Source of the DNA: an uncultured Enterobacteriaceae bacterium | GTDB lineage: Bacteria > Pseudomonadota > Gammaproteobacteria > Eutrophobiales > Eutrophobiaceae | Direction: 5' to 3' | DNA length: 64,000 nt | Assembly: GCA_964523895.1 (NCBI GenBank) | Contig: CAZGBJ010000002.1 | Span: 86,898 to 150,897 of the forward strand | Part shown: positions 11,119-50,992 of the stretch, one piece after another | Numbering within the stretch: position 1 is the stretch's first letter | Layout: every line of letters begins with the position of its first letter | The notes under the pieces: model-generated | Told to the model about the DNA's origin: nothing | Databases searched by the model: none | Seen by the model: the letters and a program-made list of their open reading frames with translations, nothing else | Made by a program: the position numbers and the translations under genes

Positions 11119-12470
11119 TGCATATTCATATTCTAGGGATTTGCGGAACATTCATGGGCGGTATTGCCCATATTGCGCGAACCTTGGGTCATGAAGTGAC
11201 GGGCTCGGATCAAAATGTTTACCCACCGATGAGCGAGCAACTTGAACAACAGGGCATCGCGTTGATGCAGGGTTACAAACCAGAACATCTTGATCCGGTG
11301 CCCGATTTAGTTCTTGTTGGAAATACAATTTCACGTGGAAATGCCGCTCTAGAATATGTACTGAACAGACAGATTCCATATACATCCGGGCCAGAGTGGC
11401 TATATAAGGCTGCTTTACATAATAAGCATGTTTTGGCGGTATCTGGTACGCATGGCAAAACTACGGCGACATCAATCTTAAGCTGGATACTTGAATATGC
11501 TGGGTTAAATCCCGGGTTTTTAATTGGTGGTGTAGCAGAAAACTTTGGAATATCAGCACGTTATACAGATTCAGAATACTTTGTTATTGAGGCTGACGAG
11601 TACGATACGGCTTTTTGTGATAAACGATCAAAATTTGTTCATTATCACCCAAAAACGTTGATTATTAATAATCTTGAGTTCGATCATGCTGATATCTTTC
11701 ACGATATTGCTGCTATAAGACGCGAATTTCATCATTTATTACGTATTTTGCCGGAACAGGCTAGGGTCATATATCCAGAAAACGAGCCAGAGATAGAAAA
11801 TGTACTCGAAATGGGCTGTTGGACGCCGACGGTCAGTTTTGGCGAAGTAAGCGCTAACTGGTCAATTGTGTCTGCGGATGTCGATTATCGACACTTTAAA
11901 GTAGAGCATGATGGAGAACGGCTAGGTGAAGTAAATTGGTCTTTGATTGGAGAACATAATGCTAATAATGCTTTGGCAGCAATTATAGCGGCAGAGCACG
12001 TAGGTGTTTCGGTAGATAAGGCCTGCAAAAGCCTGTCTGAGTTTAAATCGGTGAAACGCCGTCTTGAGTGTATTTTCGACTCGAATAATACCCGTATCTA
12101 TGATGATTTTGCCCATCATCCGACAGCGATAGCTAAAACACTTGAGGCTTTACGACAGCACGCAGGAGATGCACGCATTATTGCTGTGATGGAACCTCGT
12201 TCAAATACAATGCGTATGGGGTTTCATGCTGAGACGTTGGCGGCTTCTTTTGATAAGGCAGATCAAATTTTTCTTTTTCAGGCAGACAACGTGGATTGGG
12301 ACATAGCAAAACATATGCATGAATTAGGTGATCGCTGTATGGTCTTTACCGATATAGAAACAATGGTTAATTTGATAGCTGAGCAACATCAGCAGGGAGA
12401 TCAGATTGTAATTATGAGTAATGGTGCATTTGCTGGAATCCACAAAAAACTGATCGACAAATTAAGCTGA
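11118..12470 (+). CDS. mpl: UDP-N-acetylmuramate:L-alanyl-gamma-D-glutamyl-meso-DAP ligase
   Basis: MHIHILGICGTFMGGIAHIA... with the Mur ligase P-loop SGTHGKTT. 450 aa. Confidence 0.9.
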   Translation: MHIHILGICGTFMGGIAHIARTLGHEVTGSDQNVYPPMSEQLEQQGIALMQGYKPEHLDPVPDLVLVGNTISRGNAALEYVLNRQIPYTSGPEWLYKAALHNKHVLAVSGTHGKTTATSILSWILEYAGLNPGFLIGGVAENFGISARYTDSEYFVIEADEYDTAFCDKRSKFVHYHPKTLIINNLEFDHADIFHDIAAIRREFHHLLRILPEQARVIYPENEPEIENVLEMGCWTPTVSFGEVSANWSIVSADVDYRHFKVEHDGERLGEVNWSLIGEHNANNALAAIIAAEHVGVSVDKACKSLSEFKSVKRRLECIFDSNNTRIYDDFAHHPTAIAKTLEALRQHAGDARIIAVMEPRSNTMRMGFHAETLAASFDKADQIFLFQADNVDWDIAKHMHELGDRCMVFTDIETMVNLIAEQHQQGDQIVIMSNGAFAGIHKKLIDKLS

Positions 12471-12473
12471 TTT

Positions 12474-13064
12474 ATGAAGATCCCTTTATTTCTTCTAAAT
12501 ACAGTCATTTTCCCTGAAGGAGAGCTTCAACTGAGGCTGTTTGAACCTCGATATATTGATATGGTTAGTGAGTGCCTACGTAAGGAGTGTGGTTTTGGTA
12601 TTTGTTTAATACGTGAGGGAGAAGAAGCAGGTCAACCGGCTGATTTTTTTTCTATGGGAACCTATGTAAAAATCATCGACTGGCAGCAAATGGATGATGG
12701 TTTACTGGGCATTTCGGTAGAAGGTGAACAGCGTTTCAGAGTAGAGAGTTTTAAGATTCAGCAAGATAATTTATGTGTTGGCGAGATCATCTGGTTGAAT
12801 GATGATGAGGATCTCTTACCTGTCTCTTATCAGGGATTTTCAGATTTATTAAAAGAAATAGGACATCGTTATAAATTACCTTTTGTAAAAGAACCAGAAC
12901 GATTTAATGAAGCAAATTGGGTTAGTGAACGTTTGGCAGAATTGTTACCGTTTGAGATGACTGCCAAGCAGGAATTATTGGAAATGGATAGTGCTTTGTG
13001 CCGTTTTGACTATATGCAGAGTATGTTGGAGAAAATTGATTCAGGTGATCTTGCTAATTCCTAG
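12474..13064 (+). CDS. LON N-terminal (substrate-binding) domain protein
   Basis: MKIPLFLLNTVIFPEGELQLRLFEPRYIDMV matches the Lon N-domain signature. 196 aa. Confidence 0.8.
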   Translation: MKIPLFLLNTVIFPEGELQLRLFEPRYIDMVSECLRKECGFGICLIREGEEAGQPADFFSMGTYVKIIDWQQMDDGLLGISVEGEQRFRVESFKIQQDNLCVGEIIWLNDDEDLLPVSYQGFSDLLKEIGHRYKLPFVKEPERFNEANWVSERLAELLPFEMTAKQELLEMDSALCRFDYMQSMLEKIDSGDLANS

Positions 13065-13092
13065 AGGTCTTAGCAAAAGCTCTTTTGAATAT

Positions 13093-13200
13093 TTATTGAA
13101 TAAACTAAATAAGTAGGGTCAGGTACAACTTTTTAGATATCTTAATAAGTAGAATACGAAAAGTTGTACCTGACCCTACTTATTCTTTATCGAATAAACT
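13093..13200. repeat. MITE-like element: 27-bp perfect terminal inverted repeats flanked by 9-14-bp direct repeats
   Basis: aataagtagggtcaggtacaactttt (13108-13134) is the exact reverse complement of 13159-13184. The flanking direct repeats are ttattgaataaact (13093-13106) and ttatcgaataaact (13187-13200). Confidence 0.4.
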
Positions 13201-14044
13201 TGTTAGAGTCAGGTTCGTCAATTATTGGATTTTTTAGAACGCCAATATTTTCAATTTCTATTCTTACTTCATCACCTGCTTTCATATATCCACGTGGTTT
13301 CATCTTAACGCCGACACCGCTACTAGTTCCAGTCGCAATGATATCTCCTGGCTCGAGCGTCATCACTTGTGATAAGTACTCAACTAAAAAGTAACAATCA
13401 AAAACCAGATGTTTGGTACTAAAGTTTTGTCTTAAATCCTCATTGACCCAGGTTTTTATATTAAGATTATGCGGATCACCAATTTCATCGGGAGTGATAA
13501 TCCAGGGGCCGACAGGGCCATGTGTATCAAATGATTTGCCTAGCGTCCAGGTATGCGAACGCATTTGCCAATCACGAACGCTGACATCATTTACGATGGT
13601 ATAACCACCTATAACACTTGCAGCTTCATCATAACTGATGTTCCTACAACGTTTACCTATGATGACACCAAGTTCGCCTTCGTAGTCTAGTTTTTCAGAA
13701 ACATTGGGTCTGTGGATGGCATCGCCATCACCAATCACACAGGTGTTTTGTTTATTAAAAAGTGTTGGATATTCAGGTTTCTCCAAGCCGGTTTCTTCAA
13801 TGTGATCCGCATAATTTAAGGCAACGCCAAAAAATTTTTCAGGTTTGATTATAGGGGCAGTTAGTTCAATATCTGTTAATTCGTAATGTGTATTATCTGA
13901 TAATTGAGCTGAAGTAATTTGATCTTCAAGAAACTTAATCATTCCTTGTTGGCCATAATATTTAGAGTCTTGTTCGATGATTTGCGAATCTTTTATGATA
14001 CCAACGCGATATGTTTCGTTGTGAATAAAGGTGGCTAATTTCAT
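13187..14044 (-). CDS. Fumarylacetoacetate hydrolase (FAH) family protein
   Basis: 285 aa with FAH-fold motifs (…GDGDAIHRPNVSEKLDYEGELGVIIGK…). Confidence 0.85.
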   Translation of the reverse strand: MKLATFIHNETYRVGIIKDSQIIEQDSKYYGQQGMIKFLEDQITSAQLSDNTHYELTDIELTAPIIKPEKFFGVALNYADHIEETGLEKPEYPTLFNKQNTCVIGDGDAIHRPNVSEKLDYEGELGVIIGKRCRNISYDEAASVIGGYTIVNDVSVRDWQMRSHTWTLGKSFDTHGPVGPWIITPDEIGDPHNLNIKTWVNEDLRQNFSTKHLVFDCYFLVEYLSQVMTLEPGDIIATGTSSGVGVKMKPRGYMKAGDEVRIEIENIGVLKNPIIDEPDSNKFIR

Positions 14045-14220
14045 TATTTAATTATACAGGTTTATAGGATTTTATTGAAAGTGGGGATTATTAAGACAAA
14101 TGGTAATTGAATCTTTGACTTTAAAGGATTTGAGTTTAATTACACCCTGGCAAGTAATAACTCACATTTACTTTAATTCTCATATAGAATAGCTCTTTTC
14201 CTAGTTGTGGGTCATGTCGC

Positions 14221-14757
14221 ATGATTCAAAAATTTCAAAACGATGATATTCTAAAAGGCTTACTGGCATTCTCTCCTTTTTTTCTGAGTATTACTTCATT
14301 ATTTATTGGTTTCAGTACGGCTCTGATCGTGCTCGTTCTTATTTTATTTTTTGTGCCGATGAACTATTTTTTACGCAAGTTGATTCCGCCACAACAGAGA
14401 CTCGCTTTTATTCTTGTTTTTGGTGTCTCCTCGATGTTAATAATCAGGATGTTTCTTGAGGCTGAAGTTTATTCGCTGGCGGAAAAAATAGGCTTGTTTT
14501 TACCTTTGCTGTTAGTGAATAGTATGGTTTTATCTATAAGCGAATCGGTTTATTCATTGCCTGACCTTAAATCTGTAATGGGTAAGGTATTCTCTGTAGG
14601 CATAGCTATTTTATTATTCTTTGTAATATTTGGCTTCTTACAAGAATTGTTAAATGAGGTTTCATTTTTTACATCACCTGCAGGCTACTTCCTTCTTTCA
14701 GGCCTTCTATTTGCAATGATTAATTGCTTCAATAGAAAAACATTAAAAAGTTTATAA
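14221..14757 (+). CDS. Rnf/Nqr-family membrane subunit (RnfA/RnfE-like), orphan
   Basis: LAFILVFGVSSMLIIRMF and GLFLPLLLVNSMVL resemble the conserved RnfA/RsxE segments (RTLAFILVIAVVVQ; GIFLPLITTNCAVLG). It lies immediately upstream of nth, as rsxE does in E. coli. Confidence 0.55.
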   Translation: MIQKFQNDDILKGLLAFSPFFLSITSLFIGFSTALIVLVLILFFVPMNYFLRKLIPPQQRLAFILVFGVSSMLIIRMFLEAEVYSLAEKIGLFLPLLLVNSMVLSISESVYSLPDLKSVMGKVFSVGIAILLFFVIFGFLQELLNEVSFFTSPAGYFLLSGLLFAMINCFNRKTLKSL

Positions 14758-15482: not shown

Positions 15483-15920
15483 TTGGCTGAAATTATGTTT
15501 GTGCAGGATCGAAATGAAGCTCGTGATTACTTCTTTCAGGTGTGGGGTAAGCACAAGAATAAACTTCCTTTAGAGCCCATCGAGGCAATAATATCGGACG
15601 TGATATTGGAGCATCCTGAATATCATCATTATCTGGATGATAAAGAAACTTCTTCTAATAGTGACTTTAAACCTGAGCAAAATAAAACAAATCCTTTTTT
15701 ACATATGGGGATGCATATCGCACTAAAAGAACAAGTCAGTTCTGACAGACCAGCCGGGATTAATAATGTGTTTAATCAATTGATGACTAAATCAATTTCT
15801 ATTCATGATGCCGAACATAAAATGATGGAATGTCTGGGTCAAAGTCTGTGGGAAGCGCAGCGTAATAACGCACTTCCTGATGAAAATAATTATCTGGAAT
15901 GTTTGAAAAGGATTTCCTGA
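15483..15920 (+). CDS. DUF1841 family protein
   Basis: The NPFLHMGMHIALKEQVSSDRPAGI and EHKMMECLGQSLWEAQR motifs are characteristic of DUF1841. Confidence 0.7.
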   Translation: MAEIMFVQDRNEARDYFFQVWGKHKNKLPLEPIEAIISDVILEHPEYHHYLDDKETSSNSDFKPEQNKTNPFLHMGMHIALKEQVSSDRPAGINNVFNQLMTKSISIHDAEHKMMECLGQSLWEAQRNNALPDENNYLECLKRIS

Positions 15921-17200
15921 TGGAAACTCGTAACGTATATGATCTGTTTAGAAAACACGAATCTCATTCGCTTGAAGAGCAACTGCAACTTTTAGTAGAC
16001 ATTGCGCGAGGGTTTTCGAGCAGCCTCGATATTTCCAAGACATTAAAAAATTCCATAGAAAAAATTATGGAATACATGAATGCTGAAGCAGCTTCGATAT
16101 TTTTATTAGAAAATAATGCGAGTGAACTTGTGTGTGCTGAATGCGCCGGGCCAGTTGATATTACGGGTCTAAGGTTATCAGCGGGACAAGGTATCGTCGG
16201 GAAAACTGTAGAGGTGGGTTCTTGTCAGATGATTCGTGATGTTCTTAACGATAAAAATTTTACCAAGACAGTCGATCTGGGCACTGGTTTTCAAACGCGT
16301 TCTATCCTTTGTTCGCCGTTGATTGTTAATAATGAATGTATCGGTGCACTGGAACTATTAAATAAAAAAAATGATGATTTATTTGACGAACAGGACAGAC
16401 AACTTTCGTCGACATTAGCTTCGTATGCTGCCTTGGCGATCCATAATGCACGCATGGCAGATGCACTGGTTGAACAGGAACGTATGCGTAAAGAACTTGA
16501 ATTGGCAAGAGAAATCCAGCTTGATCTTTTACCTGATGAGTCTAAAGCAACGAATTTTCCTGTTAAAGGTATGAATGTTCCGGCACTGGAAGTCTCTGGA
16601 GATTTTTATGATTTTTTTAAACGAGACGATGGTTTAATTTATTTCAATCTGGCAGATGTTTCCGGCAAAGGTATGAATGCTGCCATGTTAATGGCAAAAG
16701 CGAGTAGCTTATTGCATCACCTGGCCAAGAACATTGATGATCCAGGTGAATTACTGGCCAGGGTTAATGATGAAATTTGTGAAACTGTTTCGCATGGCAT
16801 GTTTGTTACTATTGTATCCGGATTCATTGATACCAGTAATTGTACCATTCAGTTTTCAAATGCAGGTCATCAACCACCATTATTCCATCATATTTCGGGT
16901 GAGTTCGAAGAATTAGAAGCGAGCGCACCGCCACTTGGAATTATTGCTGGAACAGAGTTTCCTGTTTCAACAATTCGTCTTGAGGGGGGCTCAGTTTATT
17001 TATTCACTGATGGCGTGACTGAGAGCATGGATGAAGATCAAAAACTATTAGATGTCGGTGGTTTGATTGAGCTGATTGAAGATAACTCGAGACTAACTGC
17101 ATCAAAGCGACTGGAAGATATAGTTGCAAAAATTATTCATCCAAGCGTTGACCAACGAGATGACATTACTTTAATGGTGATAGAGTGCTGTCTGAAATGA
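15920..17200 (+). CDS. GAF-domain PP2C-type (SpoIIE/RsbU-like) serine phosphatase
   Basis: N-terminal GAF domain (…GIVGKTVEVGSCQMIRDV…) and C-terminal PP2C/SpoIIE motifs (GDFYDFF…, DVSGKGMNAAM, FTDGVTE). Confidence 0.8.
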   Translation: METRNVYDLFRKHESHSLEEQLQLLVDIARGFSSSLDISKTLKNSIEKIMEYMNAEAASIFLLENNASELVCAECAGPVDITGLRLSAGQGIVGKTVEVGSCQMIRDVLNDKNFTKTVDLGTGFQTRSILCSPLIVNNECIGALELLNKKNDDLFDEQDRQLSSTLASYAALAIHNARMADALVEQERMRKELELAREIQLDLLPDESKATNFPVKGMNVPALEVSGDFYDFFKRDDGLIYFNLADVSGKGMNAAMLMAKASSLLHHLAKNIDDPGELLARVNDEICETVSHGMFVTIVSGFIDTSNCTIQFSNAGHQPPLFHHISGEFEELEASAPPLGIIAGTEFPVSTIRLEGGSVYLFTDGVTESMDEDQKLLDVGGLIELIEDNSRLTASKRLEDIVAKIIHPSVDQRDDITLMVIECCLK

Positions 17201-17613
17201 GTATTGAAACCTTATTTGAAGTTCGATTTCCGGCCAAAGCAGAGCGTTTATGTCTGATTCGTGCTTTAGTTAAAAGAACGGCTGAAGTAGTGGGTTGTTG
17301 TTCCGAACTATCGGATAGACTGGTGCTTGCTGTGAATGAAGCCTGCATGAATGTTATCCAACATGCCTATCAGGGTGATGAACTGGGTGAAATCGTGCTT
17401 GAAATGCTCAATAATAATGGGAAGCTTCATTTCAGGTTAGTGGATTACGCTAAGCCTATTGATCTGGATTCAGTTAAACCACGTGATCTTGAAGATATAC
17501 GTCCGGGAGGACTGGGAACACATTTTATCAATGAAATTATGGATGAATGTGATATGGGGCATCTTGAGGAAGGCAAGGGGAATTATCTCGAGATGATAAA
17601 AAAAATAAGTTAA
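17197..17613 (+). CDS. RsbW/SpoIIAB-like anti-sigma-type Ser kinase (HATPase_c)
   Basis: 139-aa GHKL ATPase fold (NEACMNVIQHAY, GGLGTHFINE). Its ATGA start/stop overlap with the phosphatase indicates translational coupling. Confidence 0.75.
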   Translation: MSIETLFEVRFPAKAERLCLIRALVKRTAEVVGCCSELSDRLVLAVNEACMNVIQHAYQGDELGEIVLEMLNNNGKLHFRLVDYAKPIDLDSVKPRDLEDIRPGGLGTHFINEIMDECDMGHLEEGKGNYLEMIKKIS

Positions 17614-17631
17614 CAAAAACGAGTATCAAGC

Positions 17632-17964
17632 ATGAATATCAGCTCAGAAGAAAAAGAAAAATATACGCTTATTGGATTGGAAGGTGATGTTGATTTGTCA
17701 TGTTCGCCTGATGCTCGCAAAAGTATTCTCGCTGTACTGGAAGAAAATAAAAGTCTGTTAATTGATCTCGGGATGGTCACATATATCGATAGTTCCGGTA
17801 TTGCCAGTTTGGTCGAAGGTTATCAAACCGCTAAAAAACAATCATTGAGATTTGGTTTAGTGGGTGTCAGTGATGCTGCAATGAGCGTCCTGAAACTGGC
17901 AAGGCTTGATAAAGTTTTTCCTATATTTGATTCATTTGAAGACTATGAAAAAGAGGATATCTAA
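17632..17964 (+). CDS. STAS-domain anti-sigma-factor antagonist (RsbV/SpoIIAA-like)
   Basis: 110-aa STAS domain with the conserved phospho-Ser context (YIDSSGIASLVEG). Confidence 0.8.
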   Translation: MNISSEEKEKYTLIGLEGDVDLSCSPDARKSILAVLEENKSLLIDLGMVTYIDSSGIASLVEGYQTAKKQSLRFGLVGVSDAAMSVLKLARLDKVFPIFDSFEDYEKEDI

Positions 17965-18056
17965 ACTTCATTTCTATACTCAAACCTATCTAAAAATGAA
18001 CTTACTAAAATGAGCCAAATGCTCAATTAATTAACGTAAAAACAGTAAGCTTATAA

Positions 18057-20318
18057 ATGAATGCCATTCTAAAATTAATTAAGAAACAGTATTTACGAAT
18101 ACTACTTAATTTATTAATTACCATTATATTTCTTTCCTTCGTAGGATCTTACGATGATTCTTCTGGCGAAGGGAAAAATTATCTTTCTATAATGGAAAAT
18201 ATTGCTTATGACTATCGTATTGCTTTAACGATGTCTAACACGGTTGATGAACGTATTGTTATTATCGACATCGATGAAAAGAGTCTTGCAAAAATAGGTC
18301 GTTGGCCATGGGGCAGAGATACGATGGCTAACTTAACGAACCAATTGTTCGATGTATATGAAGTTGACTTGGTTGGTTTTGATATTGTTTTTGCCGAAGA
18401 AGATAAAAGTTCTGGATTACATATCTTAAATAAGCTGGTTGACAATGAACTAAATGATCAAAAAGAATTTATACAACGTGTTACAGAATTAAAAGATGTA
18501 CTGGATTACGATCAATTGTTTCTTAATAGTTTGTTGAACAGAAAAGTTGTTCTTGGATATTATTTTAATCGTGCAATAGGTGAAGAAGGAAAACTGATAA
18601 GTGGTAAATTACCAGAGCCTGTATATTCATCTGAAGAATTGAATGACATTAATATCGACGCAAGAAGTGCAACAGGCTATGGATCAAATCTTCCTCGATT
18701 TCAATCGGGTAGCACGGCTGCAGGACATTTTAATCCATCGATCGATACTGATGGCGTAGTTAGAAGAATACCTATGCTGTATGAATATAATGGTGATTAT
18801 TATGAGTCACTTTCTCTTTCTATGGCTCGTTTATTACTAGATGTTGATGTCATCATTCCTGTTTTTGCAGGTTCGAGTGAAACGGGCTCAGATTATTTTG
18901 AACTTGAATCACTGCAAATAGGTGATTTGAACATCCCTGTTGATGAACATATCCAGGCACTGGTTCCCTATCGTGGACGACAGGGAAGCTTTAAATATAT
19001 CTCCGCAGTAGATGTAATAAATGGAAAAATAGAAAAATCCGAATTACAGGGTCGTATTATATTGGTTGGTACATCTGCGCCTGCTTTATTCGATATGCGG
19101 ACTACCCCCGTGGGTGAAATTTATCCCGGTGTTGAGGTTCACGCCAATATGCTAGCCGGAATTATTGATGAGAGTATTAAATTAAAACCAAAATTTATAC
19201 TTGCCGTGGAATTCATTCAAATATTATTTGTTGGTCTCATTCTTTCTTTCATAATTCCTTGTATTAGTCCGTTAATGGCGAACTTTGTTTTTGGAATATT
19301 TTTGGCAATATTAATCGGTTTTAATTTTTATATTTGGGAAACTGCAAACCTGGTACTACCGATCGCACCCTTATTGTTGATGTTGCTTACTTTGTATCTA
19401 TTTAATATGACGTTTGGCTTTTTTATTGAACGACGAGGTAAACGTGAGATTTCAGGACTATTTGGTCAATATATTCCGTCGGAATTGGTTGACGAAATGA
19501 GTGACAATCCAGCGGCCTGTTCGATGGATGCAGAAAACAGAAATATGACGGTGCTCTTTTCTGATGTGAGGGGCTTTACCACAATATCAGAGGGTCTTGA
19601 ACCGGCTGAATTATCAAATTTAATGAATGCGATTTTGACACCACTGACAGGTGTTATTCATCACAGCCGAGGCACGATAGATAAATACATGGGTGATGCC
19701 ATTATGGCATTTTGGGGTGCGCCACTAGAAGATGAGAACCATGCTCGACATGCATTGCAAGCTGGTTACGATATGATCGAGCGATTACAGGCACTGAAGC
19801 ATGAATTCAAGGAACGTGGCTGGCCGGAAATTAATATCGGCGTGGGTATTAATACCGGTGAAATGAGTGTCGGCAATATGGGATCGGAATTTCGTATGGC
19901 CTATACCGTACTAGGTGATACTGTTAATTTGGGTTCAAGACTGGAAGGACTAACTAAAAATTACGGTGTTGATATTATTGTTAGTGAGTCGACAAAAGAC
20001 GCCGTGCCTGAATATATTTATATGAAACTTGATCGAGTTAAGGTAAAAGGAAAAAACGAGCCTGTAACGATTTATGAACCAGTAGCACTAATAGATGAAA
20101 TTTCCCCTGATGAAGAAATTGAAATAGATGAATACGATAAAGCGCTTAATTTTTATTATAGTCAGGATTGGGGCAGGGCTAAAAGTAAGTTTAATCTTTT
20201 GAAGGAATCTTATTCAGAAAGAAAAATCTATGATATCTATCTTGAGCGAATAGAGAATTATATCAATACGCCTCCGCCAGAAAAGTGGGACGGTGTGTTT
20301 ACTCACACTACGAAATAG
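18057..20318 (+). CDS. CHASE2 sensor-domain class III adenylate/guanylate cyclase
   Basis: N-terminal CHASE2 (…AKIGRWPWGRDTMA…), TM helices, and a C-terminal CYCc domain (MTVLFSDVRGFTTISE…DKYMGDAIMAFWGAP). Confidence 0.8.
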   Translation: MNAILKLIKKQYLRILLNLLITIIFLSFVGSYDDSSGEGKNYLSIMENIAYDYRIALTMSNTVDERIVIIDIDEKSLAKIGRWPWGRDTMANLTNQLFDVYEVDLVGFDIVFAEEDKSSGLHILNKLVDNELNDQKEFIQRVTELKDVLDYDQLFLNSLLNRKVVLGYYFNRAIGEEGKLISGKLPEPVYSSEELNDINIDARSATGYGSNLPRFQSGSTAAGHFNPSIDTDGVVRRIPMLYEYNGDYYESLSLSMARLLLDVDVIIPVFAGSSETGSDYFELESLQIGDLNIPVDEHIQALVPYRGRQGSFKYISAVDVINGKIEKSELQGRIILVGTSAPALFDMRTTPVGEIYPGVEVHANMLAGIIDESIKLKPKFILAVEFIQILFVGLILSFIIPCISPLMANFVFGIFLAILIGFNFYIWETANLVLPIAPLLLMLLTLYLFNMTFGFFIERRGKREISGLFGQYIPSELVDEMSDNPAACSMDAENRNMTVLFSDVRGFTTISEGLEPAELSNLMNAILTPLTGVIHHSRGTIDKYMGDAIMAFWGAPLEDENHARHALQAGYDMIERLQALKHEFKERGWPEINIGVGINTGEMSVGNMGSEFRMAYTVLGDTVNLGSRLEGLTKNYGVDIIVSESTKDAVPEYIYMKLDRVKVKGKNEPVTIYEPVALIDEISPDEEIEIDEYDKALNFYYSQDWGRAKSKFNLLKESYSERKIYDIYLERIENYINTPPPEKWDGVFTHTTK

Positions 20319-20384: not shown

Positions 20385-21077
20385 CTAGGCTGCAGTAAAC
20401 TCCATCTTGATACCCGCTAGCTCAATCAGATCACTGCCCTTTAATTGATACGCTTTTGCACCTATTTCTTCACCATTTACAACAGGAAAACTGCTGCCTT
20501 CAATATGTGTGAGAAAATAACCTTGGGGTCGACGAGAAATAACCGCAACCTGAGTTCCTGGTTTACCTAAGGTGATTAATGCCTTGGTTAATTCCAATTC
20601 TTTGCCTGCTATTGGTCCATTTAAGACCGTTAAACGACCGAGAGGCATTCCACCTCCGGCAGGTGCAGCAGTAGCAGGCGCCGCAGATTCAACCGCTTTA
20701 TCAGCAGCTTGTGCCGCAGCAACGGCAGCACTAGCTGAACCAGGCTTGATGATCATGGTTTTTTCAAAATCATCATCATCCGCAGTTGCGTGTTCATTGA
20801 CGTATTTCAGTTCATGCTTACCAATAGCAATCACGTCACCATCTTTAAGTGCATGTTTTTTAACAAGCTTACCGTTTACGTAGCTGCCGTTCGTGCTACC
20901 AAGATCTTCCAGGAAAGAATCGTCGAGTATTGTTATAACCAGCGCGTGTTTACCACTAACCGCCAGGTTATCGATTGGAATGTCATTGTCAGGTTTACGC
21001 CCAATGGTCAATCGCTCTTGAGTGAGTTCATATTCACCTTGAACAACACCATTCATGCTTAGAACTAACTTAGCCAT
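20385..21077 (-). CDS. FHA-domain protein (N- and C-terminal FHA-like domains joined by an Ala-rich linker)
   Basis: LTIGRKPDNDIPIDNLAVSGKHALV… is an FHA signature. A second FHA-like segment lies at the C-terminus. Confidence 0.8.
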   Translation of the reverse strand: MAKLVLSMNGVVQGEYELTQERLTIGRKPDNDIPIDNLAVSGKHALVITILDDSFLEDLGSTNGSYVNGKLVKKHALKDGDVIAIGKHELKYVNEHATADDDDFEKTMIIKPGSASAAVAAAQAADKAVESAAPATAAPAGGGMPLGRLTVLNGPIAGKELELTKALITLGKPGTQVAVISRRPQGYFLTHIEGSSFPVVNGEEIGAKAYQLKGSDLIELAGIKMEFTAA

Positions 21078-21101: not shown

Positions 21102-21929
21102 TTATTTATTAAAACGTTTTTTAATTTTTTGTAAAAAACCTTTGGGTGAAGAAAAATCTTCCCGGATACGCACCAAAATGATCGAGATGTTATCCTTGCC
21201 CCCTCTTTTGTTCGCAAATTCCACTAATTTATCTGCGGTTTGTGCAAGATTAGCACTATATTTACTTAGGGTTAAGTGAATTTCTTCATCTTTTACCATA
21301 TCATTCAATCCATCCGAGCAGAGAAGGTAAATATCGTCTGGTAAAACGCTTTCTTCGACCAAATCGACATCAACATTTGCATCTATTCCCATGGCTCGTG
21401 TCACCAGATTTTTAGGTGTGTTGGCATGTGCTTCTTCCGGTGTATATAAACCCCGGTCTATAAGCTCCTGAATTAAAGAGTGATCCTTGGTGACTTGTTG
21501 TAACTCATTGTTTCTTAAGCGATATAAGCGTGAATCGCCGACATGGGCAATGGACAAGATATTGTCATGAAAGAGTCCAACAACAATGGTTGTACCCATG
21601 CCCTGACATTGTGGATCGGCCTTGGCGGTATTGTAAATGACTGAATTTGCTTGAACTACCATCTCACGAACGACCAGAGACTCATTGCAGAAACCAGTAG
21701 CTTCATCAATTTGTCCTTTTTTTGCTTTATTTAGTCCATTAGTGATGCCATACAAAATATTGGTAACAGCAAGTGCACTGGCGACTTCTCCAGCTTTGTA
21801 GCCACCCATTCCGTCCGCTAGAATGACCAAGCCCTGTCTCCCATCAGTAATCGTGCTGTCTTCATTGTGTGGCCGCTTCCGACCAACATCAGACTGATTT
21901 ACGATTTCAAGTTTAGCTGAGAGATCCAT
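21102..21929 (-). CDS. PP2C-family Ser/Thr phosphatase (Stp-like)
   Basis: Motifs DVGRKRPHNEDS and ILADGMGGYKAGEVAS. 275 aa. Confidence 0.85.
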   Translation of the reverse strand: MDLSAKLEIVNQSDVGRKRPHNEDSTITDGRQGLVILADGMGGYKAGEVASALAVTNILYGITNGLNKAKKGQIDEATGFCNESLVVREMVVQANSVIYNTAKADPQCQGMGTTIVVGLFHDNILSIAHVGDSRLYRLRNNELQQVTKDHSLIQELIDRGLYTPEEAHANTPKNLVTRAMGIDANVDVDLVEESVLPDDIYLLCSDGLNDMVKDEEIHLTLSKYSANLAQTADKLVEFANKRGGKDNISIILVRIREDFSSPKGFLQKIKKRFNK

Positions 21930-24439
21930 TATTTATTTTTTTGTATAATTTTCAAGCAATTACGTAAATCTTTTACTAATTCCGCACCTGTTTGATAACG
22001 ATCTTCAGGTGTTTTTTCTAGCACCTTATTTATCATCGTACTTATCTCTGATGAAATTGGCATTAACTCTTTGCGTAAGGCTATTATTTCAGGATGTGGT
22101 TCATTTGCAATGCAAAACATTAATGAGGCCATTGAATCACCTTTAAATGGCAATTCTCCGGTTAATAATTGAAATAACATGACGCCAAGCGAGAATATAT
22201 CTGAGCGGCCATCAATATGTTTTCCCACGAGCTGTTCTGGTGACATATAAGAAGGTGTGCCTAACACCATCCCTGTTTTTGTTTTACTTGAATCTGTAAT
22301 TCGCGCTATACCAAAATCAGTTAGCTTAACCGTCGATTCTTTGGGAATTAACATAATATTGGCAGGTTTAATATCACGATGTACGACTTTTTGTTGGTGC
22401 GCATAACTTAATGCTTCGGCTGAAAGAATAACCAGTTGAATAACGGTTTTAATCGGAAGCAGTTTACCCTGTTTCGTATAACGCATGAGATCATGTCCAT
22501 CGAGAAATTCCATGGCGATGTAGGCCAGATCATGTTCATCACCGACATCAAAAATGGTGACAATATTAGGGTGGGTTAAGCGTCCGGCAGTTTCGGCTTC
22601 GCGAAAAAAACGTTCCTTGGCCTCATTTAGCTCATCTCCTTCAAATTCTTGTGACAAGGCCATTGTTTTTATTGCAACGACGCGATTGATTTTTGGATCC
22701 TTGCCCTGATAAACAATGCCCATCGCACCTTTACCTAATTCTTTTTCAATCTGAAAACGGCCTAGCATGGGTTTTTCTACAGAGCCATCTTCTAGAATAC
22801 TGACACCCGCTGTTCCACCGGAAGCACCAAACATAACGGTATCCTGCATAGCATTACTGCGTTTTATTCGATCAGCTACGTCCTTAAATTTAGCATCGTG
22901 TTTAGTCATGTATTCATAGATAGAAGATGCTTTATTAAATTGACGTTTGCGTTCGAAGTCGAGTGCCAGGTTATAAAGTGGTTCCATAATAGAGTCGTCG
23001 AGTGGACATTGGCGAAACTTATCCAACGCCATATCCAATTGCCCTTGTTGCTGGTAAGACAAGCCCAATGTTCGATTACTATCAGCCGATGCTTGATCTG
23101 ATTGAATCTTGCCTTTTTCTGTTACCAGGTAACGTTTGGATATCAGCAGTATGTAGCCGGCAATAAGTAATGTCGTCGGTAACATAAACTGTAACCAGAG
23201 ACCGGAATACAACAAAAACTGACTACTACCGATTAACAAAACAAAACAAACAAAACTGATCGTTGCAGCTAAGTTTGCAGATAGGCGTGGTAGTAATAAC
23301 ATCAGGTAGAGTGCAATCAGGATAAAAACAGAAATTTCAACTGGCCAGGCCCAGCCGGGTATTTCAATAAAGTCCTGATTCAAAATACTGGCAACAATAT
23401 TTGCTAAAACTAATACCGGTGGCATAGCTTCAGCAATCGGTGTAACAACCGAAGTGCCAACACCAAAAGCACTTGCGCCGATTAATACAATCTTGTCTTT
23501 GTAAATGCTTGCATCTATAACGCCGGAATAAACATCGTAAAATGAATCCATAGAAAAAGAAGAGTTACCTTGTGCATCCTGATAGAAGAAAGGATAAATG
23601 CGACCAATATCATCTAAAGTGATCGAAAGGTTACCGAGATTAAATTGTTTGTTTTCTGAAATTTTTAGATCCTGACTGCTAAGGTTCAGACTAGCGGCAG
23701 CAATCATTGCCGCAAGTGAAGGTATAATTTGTCCGTAGTGATCGACGGCCAACAGATCTGAACGAATACCGCCATCATTATCCAGCCACATATTCAGATG
23801 GCCTATGGCATGTGTTGTTTCGCCAAGAATATTGATTGGTGGTGTAGCACTGATGGTTGGATAAATATAGACACCACTGTCTATGTCTGCATTAAATCCC
23901 ATAGCATTACGAGAAACATATTCAGGCAAAGGTTCATCGGGTTTGCCAAGTGGCGTCCCTAGTTGAAACTGCATACCCATAACTACGTTGCCAGCGTGTT
24001 GCATGGCGTTGGCAAGCTTGCCGTCTGAATCCAGTTCGGATTGGCCTTGTTTCAATATATTTATAGCCTCACTCAATTCGGGATCAGATTTAGACTCAAG
24101 ATTATTAATTGCGTCGTTAAAGTATTTATCACCCAGATGGGTCTGAGGTTCTGATAAAAGAATACTGTTACCAATGACACTTACGCCACCTTGCGCGAGC
24201 TTTTCAATCATCTCTGCTTGAAGAGAACGTGGCCAGGGCCAACGTCCCAGGTTCTCTATGCTTTTATCATCAATAGCAATGACGGCGATATTTTGTTGTG
24301 ACTCACGAGCAAGCAGGTTCATTGCAAAGTCATAATTTGCAAATTCCAGTTTTTCAATGAATTGACTGTTGGCAAGGAATAAGAAAACAAGGGTTATAAA
24401 TAACCCTGCAAACCAGTCTTTTTTCCAGAAAGTTCCCAT
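21929..24439 (-). CDS. CHASE2-domain transmembrane Ser/Thr protein kinase with TPR-like linker
   Basis: N-terminal CHASE2 (LGRWPWPRSLQA), multiple TM helices, and a C-terminal Hanks kinase (LGKGAMGIVYQG…AIK; HRDIKPANIML; DFGIA). Confidence 0.85.
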   Translation of the reverse strand: MGTFWKKDWFAGLFITLVFLFLANSQFIEKLEFANYDFAMNLLARESQQNIAVIAIDDKSIENLGRWPWPRSLQAEMIEKLAQGGVSVIGNSILLSEPQTHLGDKYFNDAINNLESKSDPELSEAINILKQGQSELDSDGKLANAMQHAGNVVMGMQFQLGTPLGKPDEPLPEYVSRNAMGFNADIDSGVYIYPTISATPPINILGETTHAIGHLNMWLDNDGGIRSDLLAVDHYGQIIPSLAAMIAAASLNLSSQDLKISENKQFNLGNLSITLDDIGRIYPFFYQDAQGNSSFSMDSFYDVYSGVIDASIYKDKIVLIGASAFGVGTSVVTPIAEAMPPVLVLANIVASILNQDFIEIPGWAWPVEISVFILIALYLMLLLPRLSANLAATISFVCFVLLIGSSQFLLYSGLWLQFMLPTTLLIAGYILLISKRYLVTEKGKIQSDQASADSNRTLGLSYQQQGQLDMALDKFRQCPLDDSIMEPLYNLALDFERKRQFNKASSIYEYMTKHDAKFKDVADRIKRSNAMQDTVMFGASGGTAGVSILEDGSVEKPMLGRFQIEKELGKGAMGIVYQGKDPKINRVVAIKTMALSQEFEGDELNEAKERFFREAETAGRLTHPNIVTIFDVGDEHDLAYIAMEFLDGHDLMRYTKQGKLLPIKTVIQLVILSAEALSYAHQQKVVHRDIKPANIMLIPKESTVKLTDFGIARITDSSKTKTGMVLGTPSYMSPEQLVGKHIDGRSDIFSLGVMLFQLLTGELPFKGDSMASLMFCIANEPHPEIIALRKELMPISSEISTMINKVLEKTPEDRYQTGAELVKDLRNCLKIIQKNK

Positions 24440-39354: not shown

Positions 39355-40284
39355 TCAATTATTGTTCTTAATGACCTCTAAAATTTCGTCAGCAAGCGCC
39401 TTGCCTTTTTTTAGTTCTGATACGGCAATTTTTTCTTCACTAAGCTTAGAAAGTATCTTGATTTGAAGTTGTTCTGCCGAATCATCGTCATAATAGATTA
39501 GCCAGGATTTCATGTCGTTCTTGTCATTTTCAATTTTATTGATACCGCTAATTTCTTTTAGTATTTCGGATAAATTCACATCACTGGCTTTTTCCAGTCC
39601 GAGGCTAAAACATTGGCTAGTTCGGGTTAGTTCAGACAGGCTGCTATGGGTAACTAATTTACCTTTGTTCATAATGACAATGTCACTGCAGATATCTTCG
39701 ATTTCGGCTAAATTATGCGAGCTGATAACAACACTGTATTCACTACCTAATTGCCTTAATAAATTTCGTACTTCTGTTGCTGCAACTGGATCAAGACCGG
39801 ATGTCGGCTCATCCATCAATATTATTTCAGGATTACCAATCAAGGATTGCGCCAGCATCACGCGTTTACGTTGACCAAAGCTTAATGTTTCAGGGAATTG
39901 CTTGGCAAAGGCCATTCCGTTGACTTGTGACAAAACATTCTCCACTTCTTTAACAGAATTTTGCTTACTGATACCTTGTAGGCGAGCGTAATGTTTTAAT
40001 TGTGTGAATACATCGATACCTTTAAACATTAAGGTATCTTGAGGTAATAAAGATAATTTCCCTTTTACAGAAGAAGATTCTGGAGACTCGCCCATGACGA
40101 GAACCTTGCCTGATGTGGGCTTGATAAATCCACATAGAATAGCGAACAGTGTTGATTTCCCCGCACCATTCGGACCAACAATTCCGGTAGGTTGCGTTAT
40201 ATCGAATTGCAGGTTAAATCCATCGAGCGCTTTAATTGTCTGATAGCGTTTGCTTAGTGCTTCACATTCAATATGTACACTCAT
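39355..40284 (-). CDS. ABC transporter ATP-binding protein (ABC-2/DrrA-like)
   Basis: Walker A (GPNGAGKST), signature (LSFGQRKR) and Walker B (ILMDEP) motifs. 309 aa with a C-terminal accessory domain. Confidence 0.85.
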   Translation of the reverse strand: MSVHIECEALSKRYQTIKALDGFNLQFDITQPTGIVGPNGAGKSTLFAILCGFIKPTSGKVLVMGESPESSSVKGKLSLLPQDTLMFKGIDVFTQLKHYARLQGISKQNSVKEVENVLSQVNGMAFAKQFPETLSFGQRKRVMLAQSLIGNPEIILMDEPTSGLDPVAATEVRNLLRQLGSEYSVVISSHNLAEIEDICSDIVIMNKGKLVTHSSLSELTRTSQCFSLGLEKASDVNLSEILKEISGINKIENDKNDMKSWLIYYDDDSAEQLQIKILSKLSEEKIAVSELKKGKALADEILEVIKNNN

Positions 40285-43813: not shown

Positions 43814-44743
43814 TCAACAGGACAGTGGATTAGCAGAGTCAAGCATTTTGCATTCGATAGCAGCTGACTGCATTCTCATTATTCCCTGAGCGTTGAGAAC
43901 GACACTGTATCGTTGATCACCATTAGGCTCAATATAATTTATACAGGTAGCAGCAAAGGTCCCTGCGGTCGGTGTACCAAAGTACGCTGAATTATTTGTT
44001 GTGTTTCCACCGGTTCGTTTTGATTCAATGTCAGCGCCACCACTCAATGCATGTAATGACCATATAATCCTATCAGCAAAAGGAACAATTAATTCAAAAC
44101 AGTAACCAACATGAACTTTCAGCAGGTTGGCATCTTGAAGTGATTGTGATGAGACTCCACCACCAACTAATCTTGCGTCCCGATACATTAAATTGTCATT
44201 AGGAATGGCTGTTTCAGTTGAGCCATCGACATCGATATCAACGCCAAAATCTGTAAAAGAACTTACACTTGGGTTAACCACGGTAATATTGACTAAACCA
44301 TTACTAATTTCATCTTGCACTTTACGTCTGGCACATATCACACTGTCTGAGTTGAAATTACCAATATTGGCATTGCGAACGTTTTGGGTATTAATATCAA
44401 CTATTTGAGTTGTACCTACTCTAGCTTGTCTGCCGGCATCAGTATTTAAAAAAGTACTAGAGCAATCATTGCTTGTATCTATACTGTAATAGCTGGTGGT
44501 GTAGAGCGGCGCCATATTACTGGCAAAAGCCATTTCCATGTCATCAAGAGAGGCATTGTTTATGCTACCCGTTCTAGCAGTTTGAAAGGCCGCATAGTTG
44601 AGCGTGATTTTAGCTTGGTAGATGAAAGCAAATTGTAATAAGCCCATTATCAGAAGTAACATCACCGGCAAGATAATAAGAAATTCGACCATTGCCTGTG
44701 CGTTAGAAAATTTGTTTAGCTTTTTTAAATAGATTTTACGCAT
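43814..44743 (-). CDS. TadE/TadG-like pseudopilin (Flp-type prepilin-like N-terminus)
   Basis: N-terminus …AQAMVEFLIILPVMLLLIMGL… followed by the TadE-like motif. Confidence 0.65.
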   Translation of the reverse strand: MRKIYLKKLNKFSNAQAMVEFLIILPVMLLLIMGLLQFAFIYQAKITLNYAAFQTARTGSINNASLDDMEMAFASNMAPLYTTSYYSIDTSNDCSSTFLNTDAGRQARVGTTQIVDINTQNVRNANIGNFNSDSVICARRKVQDEISNGLVNITVVNPSVSSFTDFGVDIDVDGSTETAIPNDNLMYRDARLVGGGVSSQSLQDANLLKVHVGYCFELIVPFADRIIWSLHALSGGADIESKRTGGNTTNNSAYFGTPTAGTFAATCINYIEPNGDQRYSVVLNAQGIMRMQSAAIECKMLDSANPLSC

Positions 44744-44778
44744 ACTTATCTAGAGAATATTTTCTCGAATTTGTTTAT

Positions 44779-45237
44779 TCATTTCTGTTCAATAATAGTT
44801 TTAATCCCTTCCAGCAAATCTTTCGCTTTGTCATACAAAGGGTCATCTATATCAGCATACTGTATCATTTCATTTAGACTGTAAGCCGTCTGCTTCAATT
44901 GGACAATGCTTAAGTTATACCAGGCCTTGGTATATTTTGGGTTACGAATTACAGCTTCACGGTATAGAGTAATCGCCGCCGAAGGACGATTAGTACGAAC
45001 AAATATATTAGCCAGTCTGAACCAATTTTGCGCAATTGCAGGTTTTTCTTTAACCAGAATTTGGTAACCTTTTTCGCTCTCTACCAGATCATCATTTAGA
45101 TATGCCGTGTCAGCTTGTTTTTGAATTTCAAAATAGTCGATATTGGCGCTATTGCTAGTTTCTATATTTTCTTCTTTTATGCTTGACGTATTGCAGGCTG
45201 CAAGATTAAACATCAAGATTATTGTTAGTATTCTCAT
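44779..45237 (-). CDS. TPR-repeat lipoprotein (TadD-like)
   Basis: Lipobox LAAC plus TPR repeats. Located within the tad operon. Confidence 0.6.
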   Translation of the reverse strand: MRILTIILMFNLAACNTSSIKEENIETSNSANIDYFEIQKQADTAYLNDDLVESEKGYQILVKEKPAIAQNWFRLANIFVRTNRPSAAITLYREAVIRNPKYTKAWYNLSIVQLKQTAYSLNEMIQYADIDDPLYDKAKDLLEGIKTIIEQK

Positions 45238-45243
45238 ATTAAA

Positions 45244-45597
45244 CTAGGCATTTTCATGCCATTCCAGTTGTTGTCCATTAGTTAATTGTAATCGCTCGAG
45301 GCTATCCGTTGCCAATTCTAATACCATACTTGCGGCACTTGAAGCCGCCATACGCCAGGGCTTTAGTGCCTTAACAGTTTTTATGATAGTCAATTGTTTA
45401 TCGAGAAATACCAGGTCAATGGCATAAGTCATGCCAAAGGTATGTACTGAAGAACAGGGCACGATCAATAAACCTTCGTTTTGTTTAAGCGGGGCTGAGC
45501 CTAAAAGGCCGCGCATTCTGTCAATGAAATTAGTAGTTTTTGAAACGTTCTGTATTACTCGATCATCATTAGCTCTGGTCAAGCAGCCATGGATCAT
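45244..45597 (-). CDS. DUF192-domain protein
   Basis: …GLLGSAPLKQNEGLLIVPCSSVHTFGMTYAIDLVFLD… matches the DUF192 pattern. It overlaps tadC by 4 nt. Confidence 0.7.
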   Translation of the reverse strand: MIHGCLTRANDDRVIQNVSKTTNFIDRMRGLLGSAPLKQNEGLLIVPCSSVHTFGMTYAIDLVFLDKQLTIIKTVKALKPWRMAASSAASMVLELATDSLERLQLTNGQQLEWHENA

Positions 45598-46475
45598 AAC
45601 ATTCCTTCACCCATAAACTTCATGACGATAGGGAAACCAAGAACGATAAATGTAACCGGGAAGATAAACATGATTAATGGACCTACCAGTTTAATTGGTG
45701 CTTCCATTGCCAGCTTTTCTGCACGTTGGAAACGTTCATCGCGGCGTTGTTCGGATTGAACCCTTAAAACAGTTGCAAGCGAAGCCCCCATTTTTTCTGC
45801 CTGAATAATGGAGCTAACAAAGCTGGTGATTTCAGGGATATCAAGTCGTTCTGCCATACGTCTTAAAGCATCTGCACGTGACAGTCCTGAACGTAGATCG
45901 CGAAGTACAATTGCAAATTCATTACGCAATGGCCCAGGAGGTGCTTTTTCCATTGCTTGACCTAATGCACCTTGTAAGTTCAGGCCGCCTTCCACACACA
46001 TAGTAATAAAATCGAGATAGACTGGTAGGCTGCGAATGACAGCAGTATTGCGTTTCTTTCGGGTGTCAGATAACCATATCAACGGCAACATAAAACCAAC
46101 TATTGGCATAAAGATAAACCAGATAGGTTGAAAATTATTGAGGCAGATCATAATAAACAGTGCCATACCAGGTGCGATTATGGCTGAGATGATACGTAGG
46201 GCTATAAATTGTTCTGCATTGAGAAGATATCCTACACCAGAATTAGTAATTTTTGTTTCCGTGCTTTCAAGTATCTCGTAGGGTAAATAGACACAGAAAA
46301 AATTAGCGATGATTTGGATAAAGGGCCAGATTAATTTTAATTTCCAGGATAAAGGATCCATAAATGCCCTGTCATCCTGATTGACCATGGCATAGAGAGT
46401 GCCAATCAGTAATGTAAACAGAATAGTAGCAAGAGCATAAGAGATGATGCTACCTTGAAAATAAATGCTATCCAT
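45594..46475 (-). CDS. tadC: Tad pilus inner-membrane platform protein TadC (T2SS-F fold)
   Basis: T2SS-F domain. The start is set at the internal ATG at 46475 to avoid a 100-nt overlap with tadB. Confidence 0.8.
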   Translation of the reverse strand: MDSIYFQGSIISYALATILFTLLIGTLYAMVNQDDRAFMDPLSWKLKLIWPFIQIIANFFCVYLPYEILESTETKITNSGVGYLLNAEQFIALRIISAIIAPGMALFIMICLNNFQPIWFIFMPIVGFMLPLIWLSDTRKKRNTAVIRSLPVYLDFITMCVEGGLNLQGALGQAMEKAPPGPLRNEFAIVLRDLRSGLSRADALRRMAERLDIPEITSFVSSIIQAEKMGASLATVLRVQSEQRRDERFQRAEKLAMEAPIKLVGPLIMFIFPVTFIVLGFPIVMKFMGEGML

Positions 46476-46489
46476 TATTTCGTATCCTA

Positions 46490-47371: not shown

Positions 47372-47375
47372 TTTC

Positions 47376-49064: not shown

Positions 49065-49082
49065 AAGTGTTCCTTGGAAATT

Positions 49083-50567: not shown

Positions 50568-50710
50568 GATGTATATTTCCTGATTCCCTTAAACAATATA
50601 TTTTAATTTTTATAAACAGTCGTATTAACTATGACTGATATTTTTTCTAATTTTAGAAACTGATTTATGAGCTAAATACAGCTATGAGTTAGCTCTCTTT
50701 CTGTTTCAAA

Positions 50711-50992
50711 CTAATCCTCGACGGGTAAGTTGACTTGTTTCGCCAACCCATCCTCCGACTGTCCACCTACTATCATTTTTATAGAACGTCCTTTTTGTTT
50801 TTTTATAACCCTGGTACTGATAATTCCTTCAGGCAATTTTTTTGACATAGTGTCTGTATTAATTGTCTGTTTATCATCAGAGCTCATATCCTCCACTAAT
50901 GATTCTTTATAACTGTCTTCTTCTGCTGCAAGTGTAAGATAACTCCATCCCATCATAATAATGATGGGATAGAGCAATGGTCTAATGCGCAT
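50711..50992 (-). CDS. Small secreted protein sharing a C-terminal motif with the CpaB-like protein
   Basis: Signal peptide. Its C-terminus IVGGQSEDGLAKQVNLPVED parallels the CpaB-like C-terminus IIGGASEDGVAKSTTVSVP. Confidence 0.4.
   Translation of the reverse strand: MRIRPLLYPIIIMMGWSYLTLAAEEDSYKESLVEDMSSDDKQTINTDTMSKKLPEGIISTRVIKKQKGRSIKMIVGGQSEDGLAKQVNLPVED

Follow-up and report, generated by a model that had tools for sequence, protein, structure and literature searches.

In Escherichia coli, the MlaF ATPase depends for its activity on the STAS protein MlaB, which binds it; Thr52 of MlaB lies at the position of the SpoIIAA phosphosite, and the T52E substitution weakens MlaF binding (Thong 2016, PMC5016091; Kolich 2020, PMC7367683). 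Both studies hypothesised that MlaB is regulated by phosphorylation, the kinase not being known. In Brucella abortus, the chimeric Mla-Pqi transporter MpcEFDA has an MlaB-like STAS domain at the N-terminus of MpcE, an MCE protein of 331 amino acids (aa), MpcD, and a PqiC-like protein, MpcA (PMC12436622). The locus compared here with these systems lies in a stretch of 64,000 nucleotides (nt) from an uncultured Enterobacteriaceae bacterium (contig CAZGBJ010000002.1 of assembly GCA_964523895.1), the whole of which is referred to as the window. It contains three tightly packed genes, called the triad, for a serine phosphatase with GAF and PP2C domains, an RsbW-like kinase and a single-domain STAS protein, which are preceded by a DUF1841 gene and followed by the gene of a CHASE2-sensor cyclase. 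Gene order in relatives, a known fusion and the MlaB precedent make it probable that the STAS protein is a phosphorylatable MlaB-like transporter subunit, with a phosphorylation state set by the kinase and the GAF-PP2C phosphatase, and that in the window the client is missing.

Two further groups of systems bear on this comparison. The RsbU-RsbW-RsbV/sigma-B and SpoIIE-SpoIIAB-SpoIIAA/sigma-F switches of Bacillus subtilis comprise the same three protein families with the same phosphoserine and the same tight packing, whereas the present locus has no sigma factor gene, has a GAF input in place of the RsbU N-domain and has, across its family, a transporter as its conserved neighbour. The HsbR-HsbA-HsbD (PMC5085249) and SiaABCD (PMC8457831) systems of Pseudomonas aeruginosa resemble it in that a phospho-switch protein acts on a client other than a sigma factor. 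However, HsbD and SiaD are GGDEF diguanylate cyclases with conserved co-occurrence, while the cyclase here is of class III and is not conserved with the triad.

The window proteins were mapped onto 80 species-level genome loci, 75 of which have readable DNA after the STAS gene (individual loci are given by L numbers). The gene following STAS is MlaE in 55/75 of these loci, the convergent FHA gene in 12/75, the CHASE2 cyclase in 7/75 and a different, inverted CHASE2 cyclase in 1/75. In many relatives, a 3.3-kb insert after STAS holds four genes, encoding an MlaE-family permease (above the TIGR00056 cutoff), an MlaF-like ABC ATPase, an MCE/MlaD protein of ~335 aa with a long C-terminal region and an ABC_trans_aux (PqiC-like) lipoprotein. 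Of the 127 loci with both genes, 91 have similarity to MlaE that begins no later than the stop codon of STAS, and in 28 more it begins within 30 nt (119/127). The reverse test, starting from MlaE in 80 metagenome loci, placed STAS directly upstream wherever the upstream DNA suffices, with the exception of L128 and L130, in which DUF1841 stands directly before MlaE and the triad is missing. As for MlaB, the STAS gene shares an operon with MlaE and MlaF in those 55 of the 75 loci and in practically every locus found through MlaE, though not in the window. Loci with the transporter block number well over 100 among Gamma- and Betaproteobacteria and include those of the cultivable Azonexus hydrophilus and Methylohalomonas lacus. 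The triad and the transporter are all that the betaproteobacterial loci (Azonexus, Propionivibrio, Rhodoferax) have in common with the window's locus family; in the Azonexus locus (L055) the upstream open reading frames (ORFs) have no Pfam matches and the downstream genes belong to an unrelated oligopeptide ABC transporter. It is considered likely, on balance, that DUF1841 and the triad are the regulatory half of a conserved proteobacterial cluster of which an Mla/Mpc-type MCE lipid ABC transporter is the other half.

The likeness to E. coli MlaFEDB lies in the small STAS protein encoded with MlaE, MlaF and MCE in orthologous loci and in the conserved Ser/Thr at the phosphosite (Thr52 in MlaB, Ser54 here), at which a phosphomimetic MlaB loses MlaF binding. 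Unlike in E. coli, where no MlaB kinase or phosphatase is known, both enzymes are co-encoded here; the STAS protein is full-length and SpoIIAA-like, the order in relatives is STAS-E-F-D-lipoprotein with no MlaC, and the window is without the transporter. MpcEFDA is matched part for part by the block found in the relatives, which comprises MlaE, MlaF, a PqiC-like lipoprotein and an MCE protein of ~330 aa whose long C-terminal region is helical. Given that MpcE begins with a fused STAS domain and that the STAS gene of the relatives overlaps the start of MlaE, the overlapping pair is a split version of a known fusion. The Brucella system differs in that neither a kinase or phosphatase nor a GAF input is associated with it, and in that the window has no transporter. 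The literature searched contained no described link between an RsbU/RsbW/RsbV-type module and Mla/MCE transporters. If the proposed role is correct, the triad would supply the first natural kinase/phosphatase pair for the regulatory step of MlaB hypothesised in the E. coli Mla field. The pattern seen in the family is a variant of the non-sigma partner-switch theme and brings the hypothesis of MlaB phosphorylation within reach of a direct test.

In the proposed mechanism, the kinase would phosphorylate STAS on Ser54, the GAF-PP2C protein would remove this phosphate, and unphosphorylated STAS would bind and activate the MlaF-type ATPase. The residues that such a cycle would use are conserved. 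The phosphatase has >5000 homologues, and its orthologues, which are 50-96% identical, come from many uncultured marine and groundwater Gammaproteobacteria and also from Betaproteobacteria; the metal-binding Asp residues of the PP2C domain (D228, D231, D246, D364, D414 and D415) are invariant in 126 of them, and the domain is weakly similar to SiaA. The kinase, for which the best match in the PDB is B. subtilis RsbW (6M36), retains the N-box E..N..H.Y, the G1 Asp and PGGLG (the GGLG motif) in 132 orthologues. In the STAS motif YIDSSG, Ser54 stands at the phosphoserine position and DSSG is invariant in 136 orthologues.

The history of the locus indicates why the transporter is not seen beside the triad in the window. 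A neighbour-joining tree of the concatenated triad has the transporter block on all deep branches, including Betaproteobacteria that have no cyclase, and on this evidence the block is ancestral at the locus. In a large gammaproteobacterial clade the ancestral order is triad, transporter and cyclase, followed by convergent FHA, PP2C and kinase genes. The block has left the locus ~8-9 times independently, the triad being kept each time, and one such loss defines the clade of the window, L001, L002, L005 and L012. In L005 and L012, nearest relatives of the window, STAS is followed directly by the convergent FHA gene and no cyclase adjoins it. In L001, likewise a closest relative, the slot between STAS and FHA (12043-14382, minus strand) is filled by an inverted, different CHASE2 cyclase of 30% identity. 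Gains of CHASE2 signalling genes recur in this slot. The triad occurs alone, with neither transporter, DUF1841 nor cyclase, in L029, L030 and L041.

Because the block is ancestral, is absent from the window, and relatives of the window have no cyclase at STAS, the adjacency of STAS and cyclase is, as read from these comparisons, a deletion junction and secondary: loss of the transporter left the cyclase, which usually comes directly behind it, 92 nt from STAS. No transporter remnants were found in the 92-nt spacer, and the seven lineages in which the cyclase adjoins STAS have spacers of unrelated, non-conserved sequence. The spacer also has no terminator consensus, no promoter consensus and no unusual RNA fold; STAS and cyclase may or may not be co-transcribed. 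A candidate for a transporter elsewhere in the window, a generic ABC ATPase (39652-40281), was rejected, being 27% identical and part of an ABC_tran/DUF2705 pair. In the window lineage, as the comparison of genomes shows, the four transporter genes were lost from the locus and the triad was kept under purifying selection, with a client that is not encoded nearby. On this reading the striking adjacency is what a deletion left behind and no functional pairing kept by conservation, and the client cannot be read from local gene order.

The first-pass annotation had read this adjacency differently and proposed that the STAS protein may regulate the cyclase. In such a scheme, unphosphorylated STAS or the RsbW-like kinase would bind the cytoplasmic catalytic domain and control synthesis of cyclic AMP (cAMP), as in HsbA-HsbD or SiaC-SiaD. 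The short same-strand distance and the spacer that lacks a terminator consensus are consistent with this, as is the recurrence of direct adjacency in L002, L003, L011, L028, L033, L035, L036 and L161/L162; ~22 further species have the cyclase as the last same-strand gene behind the transporter block, and STAS-like proteins that regulate nucleotide cyclases are known (PMC5085249, PMC8457831). Nevertheless, this scenario is improbable for several reasons: first, direct adjacency is found only after loss of the block, with the transporter far more often than the cyclase as the gene behind STAS, and L005, L012 and all Betaproteobacteria hold the triad without a neighbouring cyclase. Second, the cyclase stays with the FHA, PP2C and CHASE2-kinase genes where the triad is missing, as in L165, in which nth and the cyclase are followed by convergent FHA, PP2C and CHASE2-kinase genes with no DUF1841, triad or transporter, and it co-varies with that kinase (two-by-two counts 11, 5 and 2, 22; Fisher p = 1e-4, a value that takes no account of phylogeny and is only indicative). 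Third, paralogous CHASE2 cyclases have other conserved partners, namely beta-barrel and FecR-domain proteins, and the precedents involve GGDEF and not class III cyclases. STAS control over the cyclase is not supported by the present evidence. The cyclase probably belongs functionally with the FHA/PP2C/CHASE2-kinase module; a functional link to the triad is plausible, but would probably place the cyclase upstream.

With the genes of the ancestral client lost from its surroundings, it might also be supposed that the triad is a functionless remnant in decay. This is highly improbable: all frames are intact and the catalytic residues conserved, the ratio of nonsynonymous to synonymous substitution rates (dN/dS) of the triad is 0.02-0.15 among five transporter-less genomes, and the triad has been kept through every one of the independent losses of the block. 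DUF1841 has a dN/dS of 0.04-0.08 in the transporter-less clade. Strong purifying selection on both indicates that these genes are not relics and that the triad still works. A dN/dS value for the cyclase (window against L002) was discarded, as the tblastn match in L002 spans only part of the gene.

The input to the switch is suggested by the GAF domain of the phosphatase. Its best matches in the PDB are PDE2A GAF-B (1e-22), PDE5 GAF-A, PDE10A GAF-B and Anabaena CyaB2 (E 1e-22 to 1e-15), and matches to GAF domains of PtsP, NifA-like and DevS type are far weaker. Nine contact residues of PDE2A GAF-B, reportedly those of Martinez et al. 2002, all fall on the expected letters at one constant offset in the HMMER alignment, and six of them (S424, I458, D485, T488, T492 and E512) are kept; Y481 is replaced by Thr and A459 by Val. 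The corresponding pocket residues of the window protein, S59, I92, D119, T122, T126 and E145, are invariant or nearly so in 126 orthologues. N148, K149, F155 and D159, which belong to the NKFDE motif, are invariant in the same 126 orthologues, Betaproteobacteria included, and this motif marks GAF domains that bind cyclic nucleoside monophosphates (cNMPs; PMC11977230). These features suggest that the GAF domain is of a putative cyclic-nucleotide-binding type like that of PDE2A and CyaB2. It differs from the GAF domains of PDE2A, PDE5, PDE10A and Anabaena CyaB1/CyaB2 in being fused to PP2C and not to a phosphodiesterase or cyclase.

With a GAF domain of this type, cAMP would be the likely input, and the CHASE2 adenylate cyclase, where it is encoded next door, the probable source. 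A cNMP-type GAF with an adenylate-type cyclase as its neighbour makes it more economical that the cyclase feeds the switch than that the switch controls the cyclase, and the order cyclase, cAMP, GAF-PP2C, STAS, the reverse of the arrow first proposed, is given roughly even odds. No PP2C regulated by a cAMP- or cNMP-binding GAF domain was described in the literature searched; if the proposal holds, a cNMP-GAF-regulated PP2C would be a new type of bacterial cAMP effector, and the family suggests that lipid transport in the envelope has an input from cyclic nucleotides. A second protein of the window (59957-61594, plus strand) combines GAF with an HD/HD_5 phosphohydrolase, and its GAF domain is closest to PDE5 and CyaB2; several cyclic-nucleotide-GAF effectors may exist in this genome.

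Several findings weigh against the role proposed for the triad. The STAS protein scores 27.6 bits against the mlaB model NF033618, for which the cutoff is 90, and so falls outside the MlaB family as defined there. It is a full-length protein of SpoIIAA type, and anti-sigma antagonist models score far above MlaB: TIGR00377 gives 65 bits with a cutoff of 53, an alignment to an anti-sigma antagonist model of 108 positions covers 3-107, and that to TM1442 extends to residue 109/110. In the PDB, TM1442 (E 2e-10), RsbV and SpoIIAA align with it end to end, while MlaB is matched at E 0.005, and the minimal fold of MlaB, which has no C-terminal strand and helix, is not that of the STAS protein. No MlaE/MlaF-type gene is present anywhere in the 64 kb, so that the client is not observed here. 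The transporter may have moved elsewhere in the genome of the window organism; no orphan copy indicating such a relocation in related genomes was found in an MlaE-centred metagenome scan limited to 600 stretches. Persistence of the triad alone in L029, L030 and L041 means that a client encoded elsewhere must exist, or else a second function. As to the input, the equivalent of PDE2A D439 falls in a gap of the GAF domain, the final NKFDE position, which varies across the family, holds Arg in the window protein, and some GAF domains of NKFDE type bind no nucleotide.

Some of these points raise the possibility of a classical anti-sigma switch, in which the RsbW-like protein would sequester a sigma factor encoded elsewhere, such as RpoS in the manner of Shewanella CrsR/CrsA or Pseudomonas HsbR/HsbA-RssB, and STAS would free it. 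RsbW and anti-sigma antagonist models are the best-scoring ones for the kinase and the STAS protein, the triad without a conserved neighbour in the three loci just named implies a target encoded elsewhere, and partner switches acting on RpoS are documented in Gram-negative bacteria (PMC6482189). The PP2C phosphatase, the GHKL kinase and the phosphorylatable STAS protein of the sigma-B and sigma-F switches are all present, but a co-encoded sigma factor is not: in a Pfam scan of all window ORFs of at least 120 aa, shadow ORFs included, a domain of the sigma-70 family turned up nowhere in the 64 kb, and no sigma factor gene was seen in the annotated neighbourhood of the relative L161. The absence of an adjacent sigma factor had been noted in the first-pass annotation and was borne out, as was its general idea of a partner-switch-type module with a non-sigma output. 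Furthermore, the kinase scores far below the equivalog cutoffs of the NCBIfam RsbW models, and the family-wide, fusion-like coupling of STAS and MlaE points to a client outside transcription. An anti-sigma role is therefore judged unlikely.

For the window genome, the most parsimonious client is probably another MlaF-type ATPase encoded elsewhere; the evidence suggests, as candidates in decreasing estimate, an MlaF-type ATPase, a sigma factor such as RpoS, the cyclase and DUF1841. The proposal taken as a whole, that the triad is a cAMP-gated phospho-switch for an MlaB-like MCE transporter subunit which in the window lineage has been redirected to another client and is still fed by the cyclase, is tentative and less likely than not.

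The coordinates of the locus are given in Table 1. Pfam E-values across the genes at 15.4-24.5 kb range from 1e-12 to 1e-56, far beyond chance, and agree with the domain architecture first assigned to the triad and the cyclase, all four genes being intact. The packing of the triad was also exact at every junction in the ORF calls and the sequence: the phosphatase stop codon TGA (17198-17200) overlaps the kinase ATG (17197) as ATGA, 18 nt separate kinase and STAS, and 92 nt separate STAS and cyclase. An alternative ATG at 15899 would give a phosphatase of 433 aa.

Table 1. Features of the triad locus and the adjoining convergent module (positions in the window)
Feature	Position	Strand	Length or extent	Basis and remarks
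DUF1841 gene	15483/15495-15920	+	141 aa from ATG 15495	Pfam DUF1841 3e-55; ATG 15495 is the probable true start
GAF-PP2C (SpoIIE/RsbU-type) serine phosphatase	15920-17200	+	426 aa	Pfam GAF 5e-14, SpoIIE/PP2C 1.7e-42
GAF domain of phosphatase, putative cyclic-nucleotide-binding subtype	15965-16459	+	aa 16-180	PDB matches, pocket residues
RsbW/SpoIIAB-type serine kinase	17197-17613	+	138 aa	Pfam HATPase_c_2 8e-25
Single-domain STAS protein	17632-17964	+	110 aa	Pfam STAS 1.3e-15
Ser54 codon AGT of STAS (phosphorylatable Ser)	17791-17793	+		PDB alignment
STAS-cyclase spacer	17965-18056		92 nt	Slot of the 3.3-kb MlaE-MlaF-MCE-lipoprotein block in relatives
CHASE2-sensor class IIIb adenylate cyclase (predicted)	18057-20318	+	753 aa; CHASE2 aa 42-395, catalytic aa 494-671	Pfam CHASE2 2.6e-54, Guanylate_cyc 4.7e-22
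FHA protein	20385-21077	-		Pfam, synteny; convergent on cyclase
PP2C phosphatase (second)	21102-21929	-		Pfam, synteny; convergent module
CHASE2-TPR-Ser/Thr kinase	21929-24439	-		Pfam, synteny; convergent module

The three tightly packed genes of the first-pass annotation stand, but it overlooked DUF1841 as the first gene of the unit. The stop codon TGA of DUF1841 overlaps the phosphatase ATG by 1 nt (TGATG), an arrangement from which the two genes are taken to be translationally coupled, and most of the gammaproteobacterial loci keep DUF1841 in front of the triad; overlap and conservation together indicate that the unit begins one gene upstream of the triad. The protein has the invariant motifs HPEYH, NPFLHMGMH, H..EH and EC, the His, Glu and Cys residues of which suggest a metal site. 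A confident AlphaFold 2 model is all-helical (predicted local distance difference test score, pLDDT, 88). DUF1841, as a possible metal-binding helical protein, might itself be the real output of the triad in transporter-less genomes, and the overlap with the phosphatase start, the invariant motifs, the purifying selection and the pairwise co-occurrence with the triad and, in L130, with the transporter are all in keeping with this. However, DUF1841 is absent from the betaproteobacterial loci and from ~10 gammaproteobacterial loci that keep the triad, and neither a sequence match to the PDB nor a PDB fold match to the model was found, so that this output is very unlikely.

Residues of the cyclase bear on its role as a source of cAMP. 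In class III cyclases, a pair of metal-binding Asp residues and the transition-state Asn and Arg act in catalysis, and a Lys/Thr pair selects the substrate. Alignment to Cya2 of Synechocystis (2W01) and to 6FHT, a bacteriophytochrome fusion with the same cyclase domain, with P. aeruginosa CyaB (3R5G) as a further match, locates the motifs FSDVRGF, GDAIMAF and TVNLGSRLE, in which the metal Asp pair, the Asn and the Arg are present. The specificity pair consists of Lys in IDKYMGD, a position occupied by Glu in Cya2, which is a guanylate cyclase, and Thr in YTVLGDTVN. By these adenylate-type residues the protein is predicted to be a class IIIb adenylate cyclase. As in CHASE2 receptors, the sensor domain (PF05226) is followed by a hydrophobic stretch and then by the cyclase domain. 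The gene arrangement of the window is repeated in L161 and L162. A C-terminal extension of ~80 aa (20070-20318, aa 672-753), which follows the catalytic domain, has no Pfam domain; its end, WDGVFTHT(T/S)K, is almost the same in the cyclase of Methylohalomonas (L040), where identity over the whole protein is 56%.

A periplasmic CHASE2 sensor is also fused to a class III cyclase in CyaD1, CyaD2 and CyaK of Sinorhizobium meliloti, which are known together with the outer-membrane protein NsrA (PMC7529298, PMC13001267). Paralogues of the window cyclase adjoin a beta-barrel protein and a FecR-domain protein, unlike the window cyclase itself, which adjoins the FHA/PP2C/CHASE2-kinase module. The paralogues (54-57% identity) stand next to bipA in clusters of cyclase, autotransporter-type barrel and FecR, and one such cluster shares a 479-kb contig with a triad of the window clade. 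In L163, L164, L166, L167 and L168, paralogous CHASE2 cyclases are flanked by an autotransporter-type beta-barrel and a FecR-domain protein, flanks that recall the CyaK/NsrA pairing. The window itself has a pair of ShlB and FecR genes 7 kb from its CHASE2 genes.

The FHA protein of the convergent module has an N-terminal FHA domain, an Ala/Pro-rich linker and a conserved C-terminal domain. Relatives with a phosphatase of only 81-86% identity have an FHA protein of 89-95% identity, an unusual constraint for a signalling adaptor.

Beyond this module, the segment 24536-36866 encodes a HisKA_3 histidine kinase, a LuxR-type response regulator, an outer-membrane protein of ShlB/TpsB type, a FecR-domain protein, a 140-aa ORF and a 1930-aa ORF, the last with no Pfam match. 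Its G+C (guanine plus cytosine) fraction is 0.44-0.46, against ~0.39 for the window. L161 lacks the segment, with DUF4124-HDOD coming straight after the CHASE2 kinase, and parts of it occur in L005 and L011; the segment has the look of an insertion. Further downstream, a Tad/Flp pilus locus (43814-57307, minus strand) encodes TadE/G-like proteins, two T2SSF proteins, a secretin and an RcpC-like protein. The TadA-type ATPase of this locus (47376-49064) has an N-terminal FHA domain and is a possible target of the signalling of the Ser/Thr kinase encoded nearby.

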